From Candidatus Iainarchaeum sp. (GTDB taxonomy: Archaea; Iainarchaeota; Iainarchaeia; Iainarchaeales; 0-14-0-20-34-12), in the NCBI GenBank assembly GCA_030649345.1, contig JAUSKK010000009.1, positions 1 through 15,894 on the forward strand: a stretch of 15,894 nucleotides of DNA. Direction: 5' to 3'. Below the pieces are notes generated by a model, which ran no database searches, was not told where the DNA came from, and saw nothing but the letters and a program-made list of their open reading frames with translations. How positions within the stretch are numbered: the first letter of the stretch is position 1; each line of letters begins with the position of its first letter. The translations under genes were made by a program, and so were the position numbers. Shown here piece by piece: positions 1,873 through 14,131 of this stretch.

Positions 1873-2040
1873 ATGCCTTTATCCCAAGAATTGCTGCAAA
1901 TCTTAGTTTGCCCTCAATGCAAAGGCGAATTAGCTTATTTAGTTGAAAAGTCCAAATTAGCCTGTAAATCTTGCAAACTGGCTTTCCTGGTTGAAAACAA
2001 TATTCCTATTTTGTTAATCGATCAAGCAGTTTCAATTTAA
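1873..2040 (+). CDS. Trm112-like / UPF0434 small zinc-ribbon protein
   Basis: 55 aa: MPLSQELLQILVCPQCKGELAYLVEKSKLACKSCKLAFLVENNIPILLIDQAVSI. It has CPxC...CxxC cysteine pairs and the typical (D/N)xIPILL ending of Trm112/DUF343 proteins. The 69-aa N-terminal extension in track ORF 1666..2040 has no support. The stop overlaps the convergent gatB stop (TTAA at 2037-2040). Confidence 0.75.
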   Translation: MPLSQELLQILVCPQCKGELAYLVEKSKLACKSCKLAFLVENNIPILLIDQAVSI

Positions 2041-3350
2041 TTTTTTATTTTGGCCAATAGTATTTCTTGAATTATTTCAACTTTTTGATTTTTGTTTTCT
2101 TGTTTTATTTTTCCAATCAAAAAATTCAATGAATTCTGTTTTCCGTTTCTATAATCTAGTACGGCTTGTTCATTTTTTTCCAATATTTGTTTTATGGCAG
2201 TCTCTAAATTGTTTTCTGAAATTTTCATTTCTGTTTTTCCGTCCAATTTGTTGCGCAGCCATTCAACTGCCTGCATTTCTTCAATTTGTTTTTCTTTCAT
2301 TTTTTGAATAATTTCAATCAAAAATTCGTTCAAAAATTCAATGGACTGTGAAATATTTCTGTATTCCAATTCATGTTTTACGTGTTTTTGAAAAAACAAT
2401 CCAGCCGTTAAAAAATCACAGCGTGAACTTATTTTTGAAAATGATTTTACTAAATTTTTTTTCGAGCAAATGGTTTGAGCTGTACTAAATGCCAGCCCTT
2501 TTTGAATTAATTGATTTCGATAATTTAGCGGATGAATGGGTGCTTGTTGAATTATGGCTTCAATCATTTTTGAATCAATGGCAAAACTTGCAATATCTGG
2601 GTCTGGAAGATGTCTGTAATCTGCGGTATCTTCTTTGTCTCTGGATTCAAACAAACATCTTGCCTTCCGGTCTAAATGAAGTGTTTTTCGCACAATTTTT
2701 TTCCCTTGAGCCATTAACATTTTTTGTCTTTGTTCTTCTAATTCTATGGCGATTTCTATATCGTGAATGGAATTTAAATTTTTAATTTCTCCGCGTTCTG
2801 CTCCAATAGAAACATTTACGTCTATTTTGAATTCTGCTCCAGTTCTGCAAAATTCCAAATAATCCAACAAGTATTTGAATTCTTTCAAAAATTCAATGGT
2901 TTCTGGCCCTGAATATAATTCTGGTTCAGTTACCAATTCCAGCAATGGAACTCCGGAACGATTAAAATTCACAGTTCCGTGTTCAAAATCATAGTCTCCA
3001 GCATCTTCTTCTGCATGAATCTCTCGAATATTTACTCCGCGAAATTTTCCTTGAATGATTAAAGGTTCTGTGGTTCGCTGGAAATTGTTGGGTAAATCCG
3101 GATAAAAATAATGTTTGCGCAAAATTTTTATTTGTTTTTTTTCGACAATGGTTCCATGCAAAAAATGGCTTAATTCAATGGCTTGTTCAATAACTGTTTG
3201 ATTCAACTTCAAGGGTTTAGCTCCAGGTTGCCCTGTGCAAATTTCACAAATATTTTCATTTCCTTTTTTTCCAACATAGTCTGCAGAACAAGCGCAAAAT
3301 AATTTGCTTTCTGTTCTAGGGTAAATATGGATTTCCAAGCCAATCTTCAT
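2037..3350 (-). CDS. gatB: aspartyl/glutamyl-tRNA(Asn/Gln) amidotransferase subunit B
   Basis: MKIGLEIHIY...KLFCACS...CEICTGQPGAKP, RKHYFYPDLP, IHAEEDAGD, NRSGVPLLELVTEP, EIKNLNS and DYRHLPDPD are all GatB/GatE-family signatures. Its position directly after gatC-gatA argues for GatB. I chose ATG 3350-3348 because it forms an ATGA overlap with the gatA stop (TGA 3349-3347). The track ORF extends to 3386. Confidence 0.9.
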   Translation of the reverse strand: MKIGLEIHIYPRTESKLFCACSADYVGKKGNENICEICTGQPGAKPLKLNQTVIEQAIELSHFLHGTIVEKKQIKILRKHYFYPDLPNNFQRTTEPLIIQGKFRGVNIREIHAEEDAGDYDFEHGTVNFNRSGVPLLELVTEPELYSGPETIEFLKEFKYLLDYLEFCRTGAEFKIDVNVSIGAERGEIKNLNSIHDIEIAIELEEQRQKMLMAQGKKIVRKTLHLDRKARCLFESRDKEDTADYRHLPDPDIASFAIDSKMIEAIIQQAPIHPLNYRNQLIQKGLAFSTAQTICSKKNLVKSFSKISSRCDFLTAGLFFQKHVKHELEYRNISQSIEFLNEFLIEIIQKMKEKQIEEMQAVEWLRNKLDGKTEMKISENNLETAIKQILEKNEQAVLDYRNGKQNSLNFLIGKIKQENKNQKVEIIQEILLAKIKN

Positions 3351-4687
3351 GGAGCATTCACCCAATTTTCCCATTTTTGTAAGCAACCCAAAACTGTTTT
3401 ATCTTCAAATTGATTTCCCATAACTTGCAATCCAATGCCTTCGCCTAAAGAAATACTTCCAGCTGGGCTTCCAATTAAATTGGCTTGAACAGTTAACAAA
3501 TCTGCAGAATACATTTGAATAGGGTCTGCAATTTTTTCACCCAAGCCAAACGGCGGGACTGGTGCCACACTGGAAATTAGGATAGGTGTTTTTTGAAATA
3601 ATTGAGTGTATTCTTTTTGCAATCTTGCTCTTGCCGTTAATGCCTTTTTGTAAAATTTTTGGCTTTCTTCTTTTTGAGTTAAATAAGTTCCCAATAAAAT
3701 TCTTCGCTTGACTTCTTTTCCTAAAACACTTCGATTGACTTTCACTGCTTCTATAATATCGCTTCCTGAAAATTGTTTTCCATACTTGAATCCATCAAAT
3801 TTTTGCATACTGCTGGAAAATTCAGCATACATGCAGGCATAATATGCTGGAACAGCTATTTTTTGCAAAGGCATTGAGTGCTCAATTACTTCCAGTCCTT
3901 TTCGTTCCAGTGTTTGAATTGTTTTTTTTATTTTTTGTTCAACTTTTGTATCTAAATTTTCCATTTGCTCTCGAATGATTCCAATTTGTGTAATTTCTTT
4001 TTTTTCTTTTAGTTTTTCTTTTTGTTCACAAAATAAATTCAGTAATGTTTCCGAGTATTGAACTGTTTTTTCCATCCAGGCAACAGTATCCAAACTCATG
4101 GCCAAGTCACTTAAACCATGCCGTGAAATAATGTCATGCGTTGGCTTAAAGGATTGAATATTGCAAAAAGTTGCCGGCAAACGAATACTGCCTCCAGTAT
4201 CCGATCCAAGGCCTATGTCGCATAATTCTGCTGAAACCGAGCATGCTGTTCCAGAACTGCTTCCGCCGCATGTTTTTCCTTTAAATTTTGGATTTTGGCT
4301 AGTTTGAAATGCACTGTTTTCTCCGCTGGAGCCGCAGGCAAATTCATCGCAATTGGTTTTTCCCAAAATAATTCCGTCTTCTTTTAGAATCTGTTCAACT
4401 ACTTTTGCAGAGTAGGGCGCGATGTATCCATCCAATGATTTGGAACTGCATTGAAACGGCAGTCCTTGTACTGCAAAAACATCTTTAATGGAAAAACATA
4501 ATCCAAATAACTTTCCATGTTTTTCTTTAGGTTTTTTTTCTAATTCATTGATTCGTTCCAACAGTTTGCCTAAAGATTCAACAGAATTAAATGCCTGCAA
4601 TTCAGATTTGCGTGCAATTTGTTCCAAGTAATTGAGTGTTCGTTCCCGTAATTCAGTTAAGGCCTTGCCTGTTTTTTTCGGCATCAT
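3347..4687 (-). CDS. gatA: aspartyl/glutamyl-tRNA(Asn/Gln) amidotransferase subunit A (amidase signature family)
   Basis: Amidase signature region GGSSSGTACSVSAELCDIGLGSDTGGSIRLPA. Length is 446 aa and the gene sits between gatC and gatB. Confidence 0.92.
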   Translation of the reverse strand: MMPKKTGKALTELRERTLNYLEQIARKSELQAFNSVESLGKLLERINELEKKPKEKHGKLFGLCFSIKDVFAVQGLPFQCSSKSLDGYIAPYSAKVVEQILKEDGIILGKTNCDEFACGSSGENSAFQTSQNPKFKGKTCGGSSSGTACSVSAELCDIGLGSDTGGSIRLPATFCNIQSFKPTHDIISRHGLSDLAMSLDTVAWMEKTVQYSETLLNLFCEQKEKLKEKKEITQIGIIREQMENLDTKVEQKIKKTIQTLERKGLEVIEHSMPLQKIAVPAYYACMYAEFSSSMQKFDGFKYGKQFSGSDIIEAVKVNRSVLGKEVKRRILLGTYLTQKEESQKFYKKALTARARLQKEYTQLFQKTPILISSVAPVPPFGLGEKIADPIQMYSADLLTVQANLIGSPAGSISLGEGIGLQVMGNQFEDKTVLGCLQKWENWVNAP

Positions 4688-4706
4688 AGTTTGCTCCTAT
4701 TTTTAT

Positions 4707-5027
4707 TCAAACTCTTCTGGAATTTGAATTCTGTTCCCAACTCGAGTTTTTATAAAATGTTTTGGGAACAACGGCAAGGCTGTTTTTTTGTTCTGGAAAC
4801 ATTTTTACAATATTTTTTGAATTTAAATGAATATGAATACAATCTTTTCGAAATTCATTTTCTTGTTTTTCGTTTGTTTGAAATCTTTCTTCTTGAATGT
4901 CTATTGTGTTTAAAGGTTCTAAAAATTTTAGAATTTCTGCCAATTCTTTTTCAAATTCTTGAAATTCTTTTTCAGTTAATTCCAGTCTGGCTAAGTGTGC
5001 TAGTTTTTCCAATTCTTCTTTTTTCAT
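4707..5027 (-). CDS. gatC: aspartyl/glutamyl-tRNA(Asn/Gln) amidotransferase subunit C
   Basis: MKKEELEKLAHLARLELTEKEFQEFEKELAEILKFLEPLNTIDI... matches the GatC pattern (hAxLARLxLxxxE). It lies 19 nt upstream of gatA. Start is ATG 5027, with ATG 5033 (MLMKK) as an alternative. The track extension to 5126 would run through the hairpin element and into the lrp 3' end, so I reject it. Confidence 0.8.
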   Translation of the reverse strand: MKKEELEKLAHLARLELTEKEFQEFEKELAEILKFLEPLNTIDIQEERFQTNEKQENEFRKDCIHIHLNSKNIVKMFPEQKNSLAVVPKTFYKNSSWEQNSNSRRV

Positions 5028-5035
5028 AAGCATTA

Positions 5036-5097
5036 CAACCCGCGTGCGGGTTGGTAACACGTGGCACTTGCGTTTCACTTCAGTGCCACAGTTTTTT
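5036..5097 (+). repeat. double-hairpin element, copy 1 (unclassified structured RNA/DNA motif plus T-tract)
   Basis: Hairpin 1 is CAACCCG(5036-5042)/CGGGTTG(5047-5053) with loop CGTG. The linker GTAACAC contains CACGTG. Hairpin 2 is GTGGCACT(5061-5068)/AGTGCCAC(5082-5089) with loop TGCGTTTCACTTC, followed by TTTTTT (5092-5097). It is collinear with copy 2 at 10965 and shows compensatory stem substitutions. It fills the whole gap between the lrp stop (5096-5098) and the gatC start. Confidence 0.6.
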
Positions 5098-5533
5098 ATT
5101 CTTTGACTGTGCGGAAAACCAAACAACTTAAGGTTGCTGCAACTCCACGAATTCCTCGAACTCTATCCAATATGGTTTCTCCAATTTTTTTTAAATTTTC
5201 TCCGCGTACTTTGATGATAATATCAAATGTTCCAGTAATAATGTAGACTTCTTCTACGCCGGGAATTTTTGCAATTTGTTTAGCAACCTCATTTTGGTCA
5301 ATGCCTGACTTGTAATCATAGGTAATCAATACCATGGAAGTTGTTCCTAAATTTAATTTTTCATAATCTGGAACAATGGTGTATTTTTTGATGAATCCAT
5401 CGGTTTCCAATTTTTTAATTCTGTCAAAAACAGTGGTTCTCGGCATTCCCAATTCTTTAGCTAACTCTTTTACACTCTTCCTAGAGTTTTCTTTTAAACT
5501 ATCAATAATTAAAGAATCTTTTTTATCCATCAT
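5096..5533 (-). CDS. Lrp/AsnC-family transcriptional regulator
   Basis: N-terminal wHTH (IIDSLKENSRKSVKELAKELGMPRTTVFDRIKKLETDGFIKKYT) plus a C-terminal RAM/AsnC_trans_reg-like domain (VLITYD...VEEVYIITGTFDIIIKV). An A/T box (reverse complement catttataaattaaata) lies about 25-35 nt upstream of the ATG, suggesting a leaderless mRNA. Confidence 0.9.
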   Translation of the reverse strand: MMDKKDSLIIDSLKENSRKSVKELAKELGMPRTTVFDRIKKLETDGFIKKYTIVPDYEKLNLGTTSMVLITYDYKSGIDQNEVAKQIAKIPGVEEVYIITGTFDIIIKVRGENLKKIGETILDRVRGIRGVAATLSCLVFRTVKE

Positions 5534-5661
5534 ATACTTATTATGTCGGTATTTAATTTATAAATGTATCACTATTCCGTCTTTTTGACAATAAAACCGT
5601 CATTAGTTTTAAATATAACCTAGTTTATTGTATTTAGTACGCAGAAAATGGGGCAAAATAC

Positions 5662-5720
5662 GGGTGGGTAGTCGCAACACCGCCTGACCGCGGTGGCAGG
5701 TCGTGATGCTAAAGCATCAC
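5662..5720 (+). other. tRNA-Asn 5'-end duplicate fused to two GC-rich hairpins (unclassified RNA-like element)
   Basis: 5656-5673 (aaatacGGGTGGGTAGTC) repeats 5746-5763 (aaatatGGGTGGGTAGTC), which is the upstream flank plus the first 12 nt of tRNA-Asn, with one mismatch over 18 nt. It continues as CACCGC(5678-5683)/GCGGTG(5690-5695) and GTGATGC(5703-5709)/GCATCAC(5714-5720). No matching 3' acceptor strand exists, so it is not a complete tRNA. Confidence 0.4.
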
Positions 5721-5751
5721 TGTCTAAAGATTAAAGTTAATCCAAAAATAT

Positions 5752-5824
5752 GGGTGGGTAGTCCAATTTGGTAGGATGCAAGGCTGTTGACCTTGGGACA
5801 CTGGTTCGAGTCCAGTCCCACCCG
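5752..5824 (+). tRNA. tRNA-Asn (anticodon GTT), no intron, CCA not encoded
   Basis: Manual cloverleaf: acceptor GGGTGGG/CCCACCC, D arm GTCC-AATTTGGTA-GGAT, anticodon arm CAAGG-CTGTTGA-CCTTG (GTT at positions 34-36), T arm ACTGG-TTCGAGT-CCAGT, discriminator G. Confidence 0.92.
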
Positions 5825-5830
5825 CTATCC

Positions 5831-5890
5831 AAACCCTTCCAGGGTTTCGATGCATCCCGGGTGGAGGATCTTCGTTTCACTTGATCCTCC
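5831..5890 (+). repeat. double-hairpin element, copy 3 (divergent stems, conserved loop)
   Basis: Hairpin 1 is AAACCCT(5831-5837)/AGGGTTT(5841-5847). The 15-nt linker contains ATGCAT and CCCGGG. Hairpin 2 is GGAGGATC(5863-5870)/GATCCTCC(5883-5890) with loop TTCGTTTCACTT. That loop shares the 10-mer CGTTTCACTT with copy 1, although the stem sequence is completely different. It starts 6 nt after tRNA-Asn. Confidence 0.5.
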
Positions 5891-5995
5891 TGAACTTAAT
5901 TGCACTTGATACTGCGTTGGCAAAAAAGAAAGAAACCGTATTTGATCAAAAGAAATCAAATTAATTTGTAATTGTTTTAAGTTGTGTGAAATTTT

Positions 5996-7032: not shown

Positions 7033-7425
7033 GTGGTGATTTTTTTGGCAGAAACAGAAACTCAAGTAAACACAGCAGAAATTCAGGAAGAAGAAGGAAT
7101 TGTAGATGAACGCGAATTGCCGTTTCCGCGTGCAACTATTGTGAATATGATGCGTCAATACATTGACAAAGGAAAACAAATTAAAGGACCAGTCAAAGAT
7201 GAAATGAATATTTGGTTAGGGAAATTGGTTGAAAAATTAGCCAAAAAAATGAATGCACATCCTTATACTTATGTAGATTTAGCCATGTTCAATGAAGCCA
7301 TTAAAACCTATGAACAATTAGAAGAAGTTGAAATGGAACGCGAACGAATTATTAAGTACATGGAAAAAATCAAAGCAGATTTAGACATGCTGGAAAGAGA
7401 AGTAGACAAAAAATTCAAAGTATAA
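7033..7425 (+). CDS. histone-fold protein with acidic N-terminal segment and C-terminal coiled-coil extension
   Basis: The core ELPFPRATIVNMMRQYIDKGKQIKGPVKDEMNIWLGKLVEKLAKKMNAHPYTYVDLAMFNEAIKTY aligns by eye to the helix-loop-helix-loop-helix of HMfB-type archaeal histones (ELPIAPIGRII...). A heptad-like tail follows (EQLEEVEMERERIIKYMEKIKADLDMLEREVDKK). There is no ATG before the fold, so the start is GTG 7033/7036 or TTG 7045. The latter sits 5 nt after AGGTGGTGA (7031-7039). Confidence 0.6.
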   Translation: MVIFLAETETQVNTAEIQEEEGIVDERELPFPRATIVNMMRQYIDKGKQIKGPVKDEMNIWLGKLVEKLAKKMNAHPYTYVDLAMFNEAIKTYEQLEEVEMERERIIKYMEKIKADLDMLEREVDKKFKV

Positions 7426-7428
7426 TTC

Positions 7429-7461
7429 GGAGAATTTTTTCTCCCTATTTTTTATTTTTTT
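7429..7461. terminator. hairpin plus oligo-T tracts between convergent genes
   Basis: GGAGAA(7429-7434)/TTCTCC(7439-7444) with loop TTTT, followed by T6 and T7 runs. It lies between the histone-fold stop (7425) and the stop of the minus-strand 356-aa gene (7469). Confidence 0.45.
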
Positions 7462-9272: not shown

Positions 9273-9311
9273 GTATTACGATTTAATGCATAATTTTGGA
9301 GGATGAAACAA

Positions 9312-10964
9312 ATGGCAGAAGCAGGACCACAGCAAAGAGAAATGGTATTTTTACCAGAAGGAGCAAAACGAACACGAGGACGAAATGCTCAACAAATTAA
9401 TATTTTAGTTGCACGCGCAGTAGCTGAAGCAGTACGCTCAACATTGGGCCCTAAAGGAATGGACAAAATGATTGTCGATGAACTCGGAGATATTATCATC
9501 AGCAATGACGGAGCAACCATTTTAGACAATATTAGTATTGATCACCCCATTGGAAAAATGATGGTGGAAGTTGCTAAAACTCAAGACAGCGAAGTCGGAG
9601 ACGGTACAACTACTGTAGTTGTTTTAGCCGGTGGATTATTAGAAAAAGCCGAAAAATTATTGGAAGACGAAATTCATCCCAGTGTAATCATTAAAGGATA
9701 CAGAATGGCTTCTCATAAAGCAGTTGAAGTCTTGAATGAAATTGCAGATCCTATTGACATTGAAAACAAAACCATTCTCAGAGAAATTGCTTTAACCACT
9801 ATGACTGGAAAAAGTGCAGAATCTGAAAAAAGTTTATCCGATATTGTAGTAGATGCTGTTTTGCAAGTTGCTGAAAAACAAGGCAAAGAAACAATTGTGG
9901 ACAAAGATCAAATTAAAATCGAAAAAAAAGACGGCGGACATGTATCTGAATCTGAATTGATTCGCGGAATTGTTGTAGATAAAGAAATTGTTCATTCCGG
10001 AATGCCTAAATTGGTTAACAATGCACGGATTGCTTTAATCGATGTTGCTTTAGAAGTTAAAGAAACAGAGACTGACGCAGAAATTTCTATTTCTGATCCA
10101 GAACAATTGCAGGCATTTATTGACAAAGAAGAAAGCATGCTGAAAGAAATGGTGGATAGAATTGCGAAAACCAAAGCCAATGTAGTCATGTGCCAAAAAG
10201 GAATAGATGACATTGCCCAGCATTTTTTAGCCAAAGCAGGAATTGCTGCATGCCGTAGAGTCAAGAAATCGGATATGGAAAAATTATCCAAAGCTACTGG
10301 TGGAAAATTAATTTCTCGGTTAGCAGACATTTCTGAAGAAGACTTAGGTCATGCAAAAATTGTTCAAGAAAAGAAAATTGGCGGAGAGGCCATGACTTTT
10401 ATTGAAGGCTGTAAGAATCCAAAGTCTGTAACTATTTTAGTTCGCGGCGGAACAAGCCATGTAGTAGCTGAAGTTGAACGCGCTGTAGTCGACGCCGTTG
10501 GAAGTGTCAGTACTGCATTAAAAGATGGAAAAATTGTCTCCGGCGGAGGAAGTACGGAAATGCAATTATCCATGCGTTTACGAGACTATGCTAAAACAGT
10601 TGGCGGCCGAGAACAATTAGCCATTGAATGTTTTGCAGAAGCTTTAGAAATTATTCCCAAAGCTTTAGCTGAAACAGCCGGAATGGATGCCATTGACACT
10701 TTAGTTGATTTAAGATCCAAACATTCTGTTAAGAAAGGCAAAAATATTGGAGTCAATGTATTCAAAGCCAAACTTGTAGATATGTTGGCTGAAAAAGTCA
10801 TTGAACCCATGCGAGTCAAAAGACAAGCTATTGTTTCCGCAACCGAAGTAGCTGAAATGATTCTCAGAATTGACGACATTATCGCAGGCTCCAGCAAAAA
10901 CAGAGGAATGCCACCCGGTGGAATGGGTGGAATGCCTGGCGGAATGGGCGACATGGATATGTAA
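9312..10964 (+). CDS. ths: thermosome subunit (group II chaperonin, Cpn60/TCP-1 family)
   Basis: [26 protein letters not shown] and [11 protein letters not shown](A)E motifs, [12 protein letters not shown], and a C-terminal GGM-type tail ([19 protein letters not shown]). I prefer ATG 9312 because GGAGG (9298-9302) lies 9 nt upstream. The in-frame ATG 9303 directly abuts that GGAGG and is the alternative. Confidence 0.95.
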
Positions 10965-11037
10965 CAACCGGGGTGCCGGTTGGTAGCACGTGGTACTTTC
11001 GCTAACGCTACAGTACCACTGTCTTTTCTTTTTTTTC
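10965..11037 (+). repeat. double-hairpin element, copy 2, directly after the thermosome stop, followed by a T-rich tract
   Basis: Hairpin 1 is CAACCGG(10965-10971)/CCGGTTG(10976-10982) with loop GGTG. The linker GTAGCAC contains CACGTG. Hairpin 2 is GTGGTACT(10990-10997)/AGTACCAC(11012-11019) with loop TTCGCTAACGCTAC. A T-rich tract follows (tgtcttttcttttttttc). It starts 1 nt after TAA 10962-10964. Confidence 0.6.
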
Positions 11038-11087
11038 TCTTTTCTTTTTTCCGATTTATTTTTATTTAACTTATTCTATTTTTTTAT

Positions 11088-11594
11088 ATGCAGGCACACA
11101 GAAAAATTTCTCGTACACCTAGATTGAATATTGGCCAGTATTGGAAAAATTACAAGCGCGCTGCTCGTGATCCTCGCATTTCAACTGTTCAAGCTCAGCG
11201 CGGATTGTTTGCGCGTGTCTTTAAACCACGGGTTTCTCCAAGCACTCGATTTATTTTAACCCTTATTGAAAACGAGCTTGCGCAAGGAATGACTTCAGAA
11301 TCTTTTCAGCGAGCGCATGTACATGCTTTGTCTGAATTGGAACTAGTTGGTGTTCCAAAACAAAATTGTCTTCCTGAACTAAAACAAAGGTATGATCAAT
11401 TATACAACGAACTTCAATCTCTGGCAGCTTTATCTATGGACGTTAAATTAAAGCAAGCAGACTTAATGCGCAAAGGAATAGTAACTCCAAGTGAACTTTT
11501 GTTGTACAATAAATTCAGTCATGCATTCCATAATGAAGCGCATCGAAGAATATTGTTTTTATCTGAACTCATTCACTCTGTTCGTTCCAGTTAA
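11088..11594 (+). CDS. Arg-rich helical protein, paralog 1 of a tandem triplet, unknown function
   Basis: 168 aa. It shares with the next two ORFs a basic N-terminus (TPRLNIGQ), a central block (FILTLIENELAQGMTSES) and a C-terminal block (LMRKGIVTPSELLLYNKFSHAFHNE). The box TTTTTATTTAAC (11059-11070) ends 17 nt before the ATG. Confidence 0.7.
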   Translation: MQAHRKISRTPRLNIGQYWKNYKRAARDPRISTVQAQRGLFARVFKPRVSPSTRFILTLIENELAQGMTSESFQRAHVHALSELELVGVPKQNCLPELKQRYDQLYNELQSLAALSMDVKLKQADLMRKGIVTPSELLLYNKFSHAFHNEAHRRILFLSELIHSVRSS

Positions 11595-11643
11595 CTGAAA
11601 AGATACTGTACTGTTTTTATTTTCTTTAATTCTTTAATTTTAT

Positions 11644-12183
11644 ATGTTGTACAAACGTCCTCCGCTCAAAAGACCAAAATATAGGCCAAGATTAAGTATT
11701 CGTAAACCCATGCGGGAATTTACGCATTTGCTGAAAGGAACTCCTAGAGAACAACATGAAAGAGTGCGTACTCGTTTTTTTTCAGAATTTTTTAGATCCC
11801 AAACTTTTGCAGCTGGACGCTTATTATTTAATTTAATGGAGCAAGAAATTGCTAAAGGAATTTCTGAAACTTCTTCGGGGCAAATTCTTGGGCGTGCCAG
11901 AACTATCTTGAAAATTGCACGCACAAAATTAAAAGGAAAAAAAGTTTCCTCTCTTGCTGCTGAAGAAAGCTTGAAAGTAATGGTTCGAGAATTAGACCGT
12001 GATTTTGAACGATTAAGTAGATTCGGTACAAGCATGCGGTTTCGTGAAAGTGACATGTTAACTCAAGGAGTTATTGGAGTTAATGAAATGACTCCCTACA
12101 ATGAATTTATTCATGCATTCAAAGGAGAACTGGGCCTTCGAAGAACTTTGCTGGTGATTCTTAAACGAGAATTAGCTAAATGA
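11644..12183 (+). CDS. Arg-rich helical protein, paralog 2 of a tandem triplet, unknown function
   Basis: 179 aa with RPRLSIRK, LLFNLMEQEIAKGISETS and MLTQGVIGVNEMTPYNEFIHAFKGE blocks collinear with paralogs 1 and 3. The box TTTTTATTTTCT (11614-11625) ends 18 nt before the ATG. The antisense 138-aa ORF 11640..12056 is rejected because the + frame has paralog support. Confidence 0.7.
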   Translation: MLYKRPPLKRPKYRPRLSIRKPMREFTHLLKGTPREQHERVRTRFFSEFFRSQTFAAGRLLFNLMEQEIAKGISETSSGQILGRARTILKIARTKLKGKKVSSLAAEESLKVMVRELDRDFERLSRFGTSMRFRESDMLTQGVIGVNEMTPYNEFIHAFKGELGLRRTLLVILKRELAK

Positions 12184-12225
12184 TATTTTGCATACTTTTT
12201 TATTTTCTAAAATTACTATATCTCT

Positions 12226-12747
12226 ATGAAAAAACCAATTCCATTCAAACCAGTCCGAAAAGTTGGCTTGAATGTTGAACGAACTTGGCAAAAATATTCT
12301 GCCATGCGACGAGTTTATGGTGAAAATACTCGAACATTTCGTCCGCATAGATTGGCTTTGTTTAATAGCTTAGTTCGAAAACAAATTCCTTTAGATCTCA
12401 AAATTTTATTTGACGCAGTCAGTATTGAATTTGAAAAGTCACCGCGTTTAGCTAATCCCAGAGAAGCAGTCAACAGAGTTCAACGTTTTCTGCGAAGCCA
12501 TGGTGCATCGCCTGAAGAAACACCAGTCCGTTTGCGTTCTATGATTAAAGACATGCAAGGACTTTTAGATCGCTTAACTGCATTCGAGACACAGGCAAGA
12601 GTTCAACAAAAACGTTTGATGGCCAAAGGGCGAATTCAATTCACTGATTTTAAAGCCTATTCTGCGTTTGTTGCTGAATTAAAAGACCAAGTAGAAACCC
12701 GAAAACGGTTTATGGACTTATTGGCTCGAGAGTTAGGAACTGATTAG
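12226..12747 (+). CDS. Arg-rich helical protein, paralog 3 of a tandem triplet, unknown function
   Basis: 173 aa with KPVRKVGLNV, ILFDAVSIEFEKSPRLAN and LMAKGRIQFTDFKAYSAFVAELKDQ blocks collinear with paralogs 1 and 2. The box TTTTTATTTTCT (12197-12208) ends 17 nt before the ATG. Confidence 0.7.
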   Translation: MKKPIPFKPVRKVGLNVERTWQKYSAMRRVYGENTRTFRPHRLALFNSLVRKQIPLDLKILFDAVSIEFEKSPRLANPREAVNRVQRFLRSHGASPEETPVRLRSMIKDMQGLLDRLTAFETQARVQQKRLMAKGRIQFTDFKAYSAFVAELKDQVETRKRFMDLLARELGTD

Positions 12748-14096: not shown

Positions 14097-14131
14097 CCCT
14101 CCTTAATTGGAGGGAATTTTTCCTTTTTTTT
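14097..14131 (+). terminator. GC hairpin plus oligo-T terminator
   Basis: CCCTCC(14097-14102)/GGAGGG(14109-14114) with loop TTAATT, followed by aatttttcctttttttt. It starts 11 nt after the stop of the membrane protein gene. Confidence 0.55.

Follow-up and report, generated by a model that had tools for sequence, protein, structure and literature searches.

REP sequences and terminator hairpins of bacteria block exonucleases or aid termination, and in bacterial operons REPs act as intercistronic protective elements. REP/BIME repeats are short GC-rich imperfect palindromes of intergenic DNA that occur in both orientations, often between cistrons or just 3′ of a stop codon. Compensatory changes preserve their stems and, when transcribed, the repeats form 3′ exonuclease barriers or weak terminators. 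They are present in tens to hundreds of copies per genome of their bacterial hosts, as one palindrome or as two inverted REPs. Intrinsic (Rho-independent) terminators, including those with tandem hairpins, combine a GC-rich stem and a loop of 3-8 nt with a U-tract that has to follow within about 2 nt. In eukaryotes, a lineage with related transcription machinery, a conserved 3′ stem-loop ends the abundant replication-dependent histone mRNA. Small non-coding dispersed hairpin elements also occur as MITEs and as IS200/IS605-derived PATEs. REP-like elements in archaea have been reported computationally (PMC12306157). The REP tag is given as a GTAG/CGTC tetranucleotide at one end (PMC3733652). Term-seq of four model archaea revealed U-tracts without preceding hairpins, and archaeal termination needs only U-tracts (PMC8716108).

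The window analysed here (15,894 bp, GC 35%) is one entire contig of a Diapherotrites (DPANN) archaeon, in which a small family of structured repeats, not described before, was found. Family members consist of an 18-nt hairpin 1, a 7-nt linker and a hairpin 2 closed by CGU...ACUG. Their contexts are unrelated: copy 2 (c2) lies on the 3′ side of the thermosome gene, copy 1 (c1) in the lrp-gatC spacer (antisense), copy 4 (c4) 5′ of tRNA-Asn, and a fourth copy 3′ of tRNA-Ile in a related locus, L014.

All four copies are extragenic, as REPs are, and their hairpins of 18-30 nt resemble the REP type (a GC-rich imperfect palindrome of 20-40 nt) in that the stems are maintained by covariation at 8 of 15 pairs. 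However, three copies are known within the source's 15.9-kb contig, two unrelated hairpins are joined by a linker of fixed length (7 nt), and the host is a DPANN archaeon. Where REPs have a GTAG/CGTC tag and a RAYT, GTAG is found in c2 only and no transposase-like ORF in the window. c1 and c2 share with intrinsic terminators a U-rich tract within 2 nt of hairpin 2 and, for c2, a position directly downstream of a stop codon. Nevertheless, their 8-bp stems carry loops of 13-14 nt and were not called by a consensus scan, the thermosome genes of the closest relatives terminate with a T-tract alone, and archaeal RNA polymerase stops on U-tracts without a hairpin (PMC8716108). The c4 and L014 copies have no T-tract after the element, so association with a terminator is not a property of the family. 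The analogy with the histone stem-loop is functional only, with no sequence or structure similarity and no known binding protein; the histone element is specific to a gene family, whereas the double hairpin is not. As in MITEs and PATEs, one copy (c4) is flanked by a direct repeat (~20 nt), with none at c1, c2 or the L014 copy. In place of the TIR and TSD of MITEs, the element has ends (ACAACC.../...CCACWGT) that are not inverted repeats. Furthermore, the left- and right-end hairpins of IS200/IS605 are alike but the two hairpins here are unlike each other, and no target tetranucleotide is conserved (the 4 nt before the AAC core are TTAC, TAAC and TCGC).

The double hairpin after the thermosome stop codon

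The features of the window are collected in Table 1. A sequence-only reading had described a double hairpin directly 3′ of the thermosome TAA, followed by a T-rich tract; both hairpins, which are stable, and the tract were recovered. The distance from the stop codon had been put at 1 nt and is in fact 0 nt, as hairpin 1 starts at the base following TAA. The structured element itself is present as proposed, but the end assigned to it, 11037, falls within the T-tract, and the structured part stops at 11022. Hairpin 2 can be extended to 10986-11022 (RNAfold -14.3 kcal/mol extended). The MFE of the whole fold is -27.4 kcal/mol; against dinucleotide shuffles, z is -3.9 for the + strand and -5.0 for the - strand.

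Table 1. Features of the 15,894-bp window. Protein-gene assignments are from Pfam.
Feature	Position	Strand	Details
gatB	2037-3386	minus	Pfam
gatA	3347-4687	minus	Pfam
gatC	4707-5027	minus	Pfam
c1	5036-5091	+	hairpin 1 5036-5053, linker 5054-5060, hairpin 2 5061-5089, then T6 5092-5097
lrp, Lrp/AsnC regulator	5096-5533	minus	Pfam
Direct repeat CAAAATACGGGTGGGTAGTC	5654-5673	+	duplicates 5743-5763; directly 5′ of c4
c4, divergent member	5675-5722	+	hairpin 1 5678-5695, linker 5696-5702 (7 nt), hairpin 2 5703-5720
tRNA-Asn(GUU)	5752-5825	+	between c4 and c3; ARAGORN; Rfam tRNA 65.9 bits
c3, double hairpin	5831-5892	+	just 3′ of tRNA-Asn; 10-mer CGTTTCACTT common to c1 hairpin-2 loop
EamA transporter gene		+	Pfam
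Thermosome (group II chaperonin)	9303-10964	+	TAA 10962-10964; Pfam Cpn60_TCP1 E=5e-182
c2 hairpin 1	10965-10982	+	7-bp stem CAACCGG/CCGGUUG, loop GGUG; RNAfold -10.8 kcal/mol
c2 linker	10983-10989	+	GUAGCAC, 7 nt
c2 hairpin 2	10990-11019	+	8-bp stem GUGGUACU/AGUACCAC, 14-nt loop; RNAfold -11.9 kcal/mol
T-rich tract	11023-11055	+	T4, T8, T4 and T6 blocks, 24 T in 33 nt; read from sequence
Three unannotated ORFs	11088-12747		3′ of thermosome gene
AAA_18 kinase-like gene, MscS-like gene, tRNA-Ile(UAU), diphthamide synthase gene			3′ of the three ORFs, in this order

The T-rich tract is presumed to be the oligo-T terminator of the thermosome gene. The proposed position of the module, at the extreme 3′ end of the thermosome transcription unit and before a multi-block oligo-T tract, agrees with the layout of the sequence, and as claimed no credible minus-strand gene lies near c2. 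No promoter-like TATA was found 5′ of c2, where the sequence is GC-rich and coding. If expressed, c2 would be the tail of the thermosome mRNA. Hairpin 1 begins within the footprint of the terminating ribosome. The thermosome protein is 100% identical to a protein of a 'Candidatus Diapherotrites archaeon' MAG at NCBI, and 75% identical to its best match outside its own genome.

Paralogous copies and covariation

The proposed paralogue of c2 in the lrp-gatC spacer, antisense to the operon, was confirmed as c1. It fills the 68-nt spacer (lrp stop 5096, gatC start 5027, both genes on the minus strand), where the expected transcripts are those of the minus strand and the + orientation of c1 is antisense to the operon. 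No convincing TATA box was found 5′ of c1 on the + strand. The two copies are 77% identical over 62 nt by blastn within the window (+1/-1 scoring, E=1.3e-9) and 80% identical in a MAFFT alignment. Their stems differ at 4 of 30 positions, and all four differences make two compensatory pairs, C-G to G-C in hairpin 1 and C-G to U-A in hairpin 2; four random stem changes would do so by chance with a probability of ~4e-4, a rough combinatorial estimate that was not computed by a tool. Differences are also found at 6 of 14 positions of the hairpin-2 loop and at 5 of 11 of the 3′ tail. Coding potential of c1/c2 in the + frame was rejected: the two copies differ by non-synonymous changes and an indel, and Pfam has no match for the antisense ORF of 112 aa that ends at 5029. 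An independent Logan assembly of run SRR13727527 matches c1 (in one of its contigs, L089) and c4 base for base, and these copies are therefore not assembly artefacts.

Covariance models were built from c1 and c2 (R1), from c1, c2 and c4 (R2) and from all four sequences (R3). c1 scores 94.5 bits against R1. The same model, built without c4, found that copy at 5675-5731 (+) with 17.9 bits (E=2.4e-4 within the window). c4 ends 30 nt upstream of tRNA-Asn and shares the geometry of the other two copies, in which hairpin 1 spans 18 nt, the linker 7 nt, and UGUC follows hairpin 2. R2 identified one further member in 1.05 Mb of related DNA, at 14082-14139 of L014 (29.5 bits, E=1.8e-6), and this is a clear homologue of c4. 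E values of 1e-17 to 1e-19 are reached with R3 alone, a model that already includes the matched copies, and R3 found no additional members in the same 1.05 Mb. Known copies thus number three in 16 kb of the source, one in 21.6 kb of L014 and none in ~1 Mb of other relatives. A model match in locus L051 lies within a 950-aa ORF and was discarded as a false positive.

L014 is part of a 1.24-Mb JGI contig, and its thermosome is 66% identical to that of the window. Its copy lies ~2.4 kb downstream of the thermosome gene and beside a tRNA, starting 2 nt 3′ of an intron-containing tRNA-Ile(UAU) and ~110 nt upstream of ileS (TIGR00392, 878 bits). Positions 13978-14247 of L014 comprise this tRNA gene, the c4-like element and ~110 nt of more GC-rich hairpins before ileS, which is an arrangement of tRNA, structured spacer and cognate synthetase in an archaeon.

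The linker is 7 nt in all four copies. It starts with GTAG (c2), GTAA (c1), GCAG (c4) or GAAG (L014), and together with the preceding stem G it gives the family consensus GGNARNNC. The hairpins have a GC content of 44-78%, compared with 35% for the contig. Both the c4 and L014 copies run in the same direction as their tRNA genes.

Hairpin 1 of c2 covaries with its counterparts in c1, c4 and L014. When the four copies are aligned, 96.7% of cells are base-paired and both partners have changed in 8 of the 15 pairs, a level reached by none of 500 shuffles and not approached by any slid register; these figures come from an alignment that was fitted to the structure of the model. There are no G-U pairs among the 58 paired cells, every pair being Watson-Crick. 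Such pure stems are what REP-like palindromes, or hairpins that act as DNA, should show, and the absence of G-U fits a palindrome under constraint in both strands or as DNA. Because the stems are purely Watson-Crick, both strands fold equally well, and the functional strand, which the sequence-only reading took to be the + strand, is not assignable from sequence alone.

The surroundings of c4 are unusual. The ~20-nt direct repeat (CAAAATAYGGGTGGGTAGTC) of Table 1 corresponds to 8 nt upstream plus the first 12 nt of tRNA-Asn, and the two repeats bracket c4 and an AT-rich tail, ~70 nt in total. Upstream of the first repeat, at 5608-5617, the sequence TTTAAATATA resembles a TATA box and is close to the consensus. 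The c4 region looks like an insertion into or beside the tRNA-Asn gene in which the 5′ end of the gene would have been regenerated. On the other side of tRNA-Asn, c3 is a possible relative of the family, with a 15-nt linker and a third CGGGTGG tRNA-5′-like segment. Its membership was not supported, as it scores 9.8 bits (E=0.47) with R1 and is absent from the R3 matches up to E=5 with filters off.

Further searches gave little outside this set. A scan of genome contigs for the exact pattern CAACCN{7,11}GGTTGGTANCACGTGG gave a single chance match, in Lactiplantibacillus, and a metagenome scan with an exact pattern of 23 specified bases gave none, both being searches that diverged copies would escape. 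Exact-pattern scans of viral sequences returned chance matches only, one in a coding region and four in GC-rich phage coding regions (the latter for the c4/L014 pattern). A permissive Rfam 15 scan of the whole window, which covers the C/D, H/ACA and Hgc RNA families, detected nothing at E<=1 except two tRNAs, with the same outcome around the L014 copy. Complements of the linker (GTGYTACC), sought in the window as sRNA targets, were found only in the elements themselves. Readings as C/D-box, H/ACA or BHB RNA (C/D boxes and a conserved ACA box are absent) and as SECIS, DGR hairpin, integron attC, tRNA-half or D-arm-like elements were rejected from the sequence, the defining boxes or geometry being absent.

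Thermosome 3′ regions in related archaea

The sequence-only reading had suggested a conserved two-hairpin module before the T-tract, and had named its absence from the thermosome 3′ regions of close relatives as a refutation. At the sequence level that absence was found, which speaks against a conserved module specific to thermosome genes. In the five closest orthologues (L001, 73%; L002, 70%; L004, 70%; L087, 75%; L088, 72% amino acid identity), a T-rich tract directly follows the thermosome stop codon, with no hairpin, and the 3′ regions of L001, L002 and L004 have z values of ~0. Covariance models detected no copy adjoining the thermosome gene in 80 further related JGI loci (~1.05 Mb). In view of the T-tracts that directly adjoin the stop codon in the five closest loci, the simplest history would be insertion or duplication of a unit of ~58 nt between TAA and a pre-existing oligo-T terminator.

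Unrelated hairpins are nonetheless recurrent at this position. Among 69 distinct thermosome 3′ regions of relatives, 20 have an MFE z<-2. These regions hold one, two or three unrelated GC-rich hairpins, mostly with a T-run within ~10 nt (e.g., in L007, L009, L015, L016, L023, L025, L026, L030, L040 and L056). With ORF-based controls, z<-2 was found for 32% of 56 thermosome 3′ regions, while the share was 13.7% among 416 other genes and 12.8% among 367 upstream regions; at z<-3 the values were 27%, 6% and 4.9%, respectively (Fisher OR=3.0, p=0.0013; Mann-Whitney p=0.004). Hairpins with a T-run are ~2-4 times commoner after the relatives' thermosome genes than after other genes. It therefore looks as if a 3′ stem-loop is favoured after thermosome genes. 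The bacterial-type terminator motif was found in the 3′ sense position of 45 of 470 genes, against 22 antisense, 23 upstream and 7 in shuffles. No paralogue within its own locus was found for the hairpins of any of the 20 regions tested, and the c1/c2 pair is the exception. Across the window, 13 short hairpins with a T-run were found and 12.3 expected, which is no enrichment. Given that archaeal termination proceeds on U-tracts alone, c2 and the hairpins of relatives would be an addition to the terminator and not a requirement for it.

Gene neighbourhood

The gatCAB genes encode the Asp-tRNA(Asn) amidotransferase and, with the Lrp/AsnC regulator gene, adjoin the gene for its substrate, tRNA-Asn (window 2037-5825). 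c1 and c4 flank lrp on both sides in the same direction. The top non-self match of GatA is just 44% identical (Aenigmarchaeota), and the gatCAB genes are missing from the thermosome-linked loci of relatives; together these observations suggest lateral acquisition of the region, or its loss in relatives.

On the other side of the thermosome gene, c2 adjoins a block of three tandem, mutually paralogous ORFans (168, 179 and 173 aa; 11088-12747), which separates the thermosome gene from the AAA_18 kinase gene. ORFans 1 and 2 are 24% identical (E=3e-12). No homologues beyond the three proteins themselves were found among 5.8 billion proteins searched, and no Pfam, PHROG or NCBIfam entry matches them. 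In relatives, the kinase gene is directly 3′ of the thermosome gene, without the ORFan block. A tRNA-Ile(UAU) gene downstream of the thermosome gene is widely syntenic in relatives, and several of these tRNA genes in loci L007-L086 are flanked by unrelated strong hairpins. Two simple hairpins with T-runs, unrelated to the double-hairpin family, lie a few bases 3′ of stop codons in the window, one (7429-7444) after the 7033-7425 ORF and one (14097-14114) after the MscS-like gene.

Origin and role of the element

The preferred explanation, held with about even confidence, is that c2 belongs to a lineage-restricted family of REP-like double hairpins and now serves as the 3′-end structure of the thermosome mRNA, with a likely protective or termination-assisting role. 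Copies of the family would have dispersed through intergenic DNA in the manner of bacterial REP/BIME repeats, and c2 would have reached its place, between the thermosome TAA and an oligo-T terminator already there, as an insertion or a duplicate. The thermosome mRNA would then carry the ~58 nt of c2 as its last part ahead of the U-tracts at which archaeal RNA polymerase, with aCPSF1/FttA, would terminate. This would leave the mRNA with a 3′-terminal double stem-loop of -27 kcal/mol, which most likely blocks 3′-to-5′ exonucleolytic decay and may assist pausing or termination. c1, being intercistronic, could likewise protect the lrp segment of the lrp-gatCAB transcript. Stabilisation of the 3′ end was among the roles first guessed for the module, and the recurrence of non-homologous hairpins with T-runs after thermosome genes lends it indirect support. 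Against the preferred reading, only three copies in 16 kb and one in another genome are known, where REPs are defined by high copy number, and neither a transposase or RAYT-like gene nor a TIR or TSD lies alongside c1 or c2. Moreover, the c4 type has a counterpart, kept in shape by compensatory changes, in a genome with a thermosome of only 66% identity, a pattern that suits a functional RNA better than a selfish repeat. The missing T-tract after the c4 and L014 copies and the start of hairpin 1 within the footprint of a terminating ribosome also count against it.

Chance formation of a GC-rich inverted repeat is effectively excluded. The lack of a window-wide enrichment of short hairpins with T-runs would be in keeping with it, but the c1/c2 paralogy, the compensatory covariation and the matches of models built independently of the copies they found (c4 with R1, L014 with R2) are not. 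A thermosome-specific, vertically conserved 3′-UTR regulatory module, as first envisaged, is very improbable: the position directly after the stop codon of a probably highly expressed gene and before a T-tract would suit it, but, by sequence and by covariance model, the element follows the thermosome gene in none of the five closest relatives or the 80 further loci, and the remaining family members are in non-thermosome contexts. It is also unlikely, though less so, that the element is a selfish or neutral DNA insertion without a role at the thermosome gene, such as a relic of a mobile element or recombination site (a ssDNA-hairpin transposon end, a MITE-like element or an att remnant) tolerated at this position. 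Its absence from orthologous sites, the Watson-Crick character of all stem pairs, the direct repeat duplicating the tRNA-Asn 5′ end around c4 and its AT-rich tail, the bracketing of lrp by c1 and c4 in direct orientation and the border of c2 with an ORFan block missing in relatives all agree with an insertion of this kind. However, neither TIRs nor TSDs are found at c1, c2 or the L014 copy, the window has no transposase or integrase gene, compensatory changes maintain the stems, and the enrichment of hairpins in relatives' thermosome 3′ regions argues that structure there is selected.

The other substantial alternative, again an unlikely one, is a functional RNA motif of the + strand, conserved in Diapherotrites and located in pre-tRNA leaders or trailers and in the thermosome 3′ UTR, which would act as a protein-recognised 3′-end or processing tag or be released as a small RNA with sibling copies. 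Fixed geometry, a conserved unpaired linker and eight covarying pairs in four copies from two genomes speak for such a motif across 66% thermosome identity, as do the co-orientation of three of the four copies with the adjoining gene (thermosome, tRNA-Asn, tRNA-Ile/ileS), the T-runs after both c1 and c2 on the + strand and the full-length model matches in + orientation only. Evidence to the contrary comes from c1, which is antisense to its operon with no convincing TATA box upstream, and from the complete lack of G-U pairs. In addition, the element is missing from ~78 other related loci, all closest relatives included, has no Rfam match and finds no linker complement elsewhere in the window. 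A more specific conjecture, which is correspondingly doubtful, would make the element a new archaeal RNA signal that is recognised by a protein and marks or processes the transcript ends of heavily used genes in Diapherotrites. Its module would be the 18-nt hairpin, the GGNARNNC linker and the second hairpin closed by CGU...ACUG, and its targets the thermosome mRNA and the pre-tRNA leaders or trailers next to gatCAB and ileS.

Implications

If the RNA-signal conjecture were true, the element would be either the archaeal counterpart of the stem-loop/SLBP system of histone mRNAs or a regulatory element linked to tRNAs. The thermosome 3′ hairpins that recur in the clade would then point to hairpin-assisted 3′-end formation in DPANN archaea, in contrast to the hairpin-independent U-tract model derived from four model archaea. 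If the preferred REP-like reading holds, the locus would document REP-like structured repeats in a DPANN archaeon and provide a concrete case of a repeat that ended up at the 3′ end of an abundant mRNA and probably works there as its stem-loop, in a domain whose terminators are thought to do without hairpins. The practical impact would be modest, namely improved ncRNA and repeat annotation of DPANN MAGs, in which GC-rich islands of this family are neither genes nor assembly artefacts. The more useful lead may be the enrichment of hairpins with T-runs after thermosome genes in Diapherotrites-like archaea (~2-4 times), which makes it testable whether some archaea use hairpins for mRNA 3′-end stability or termination.
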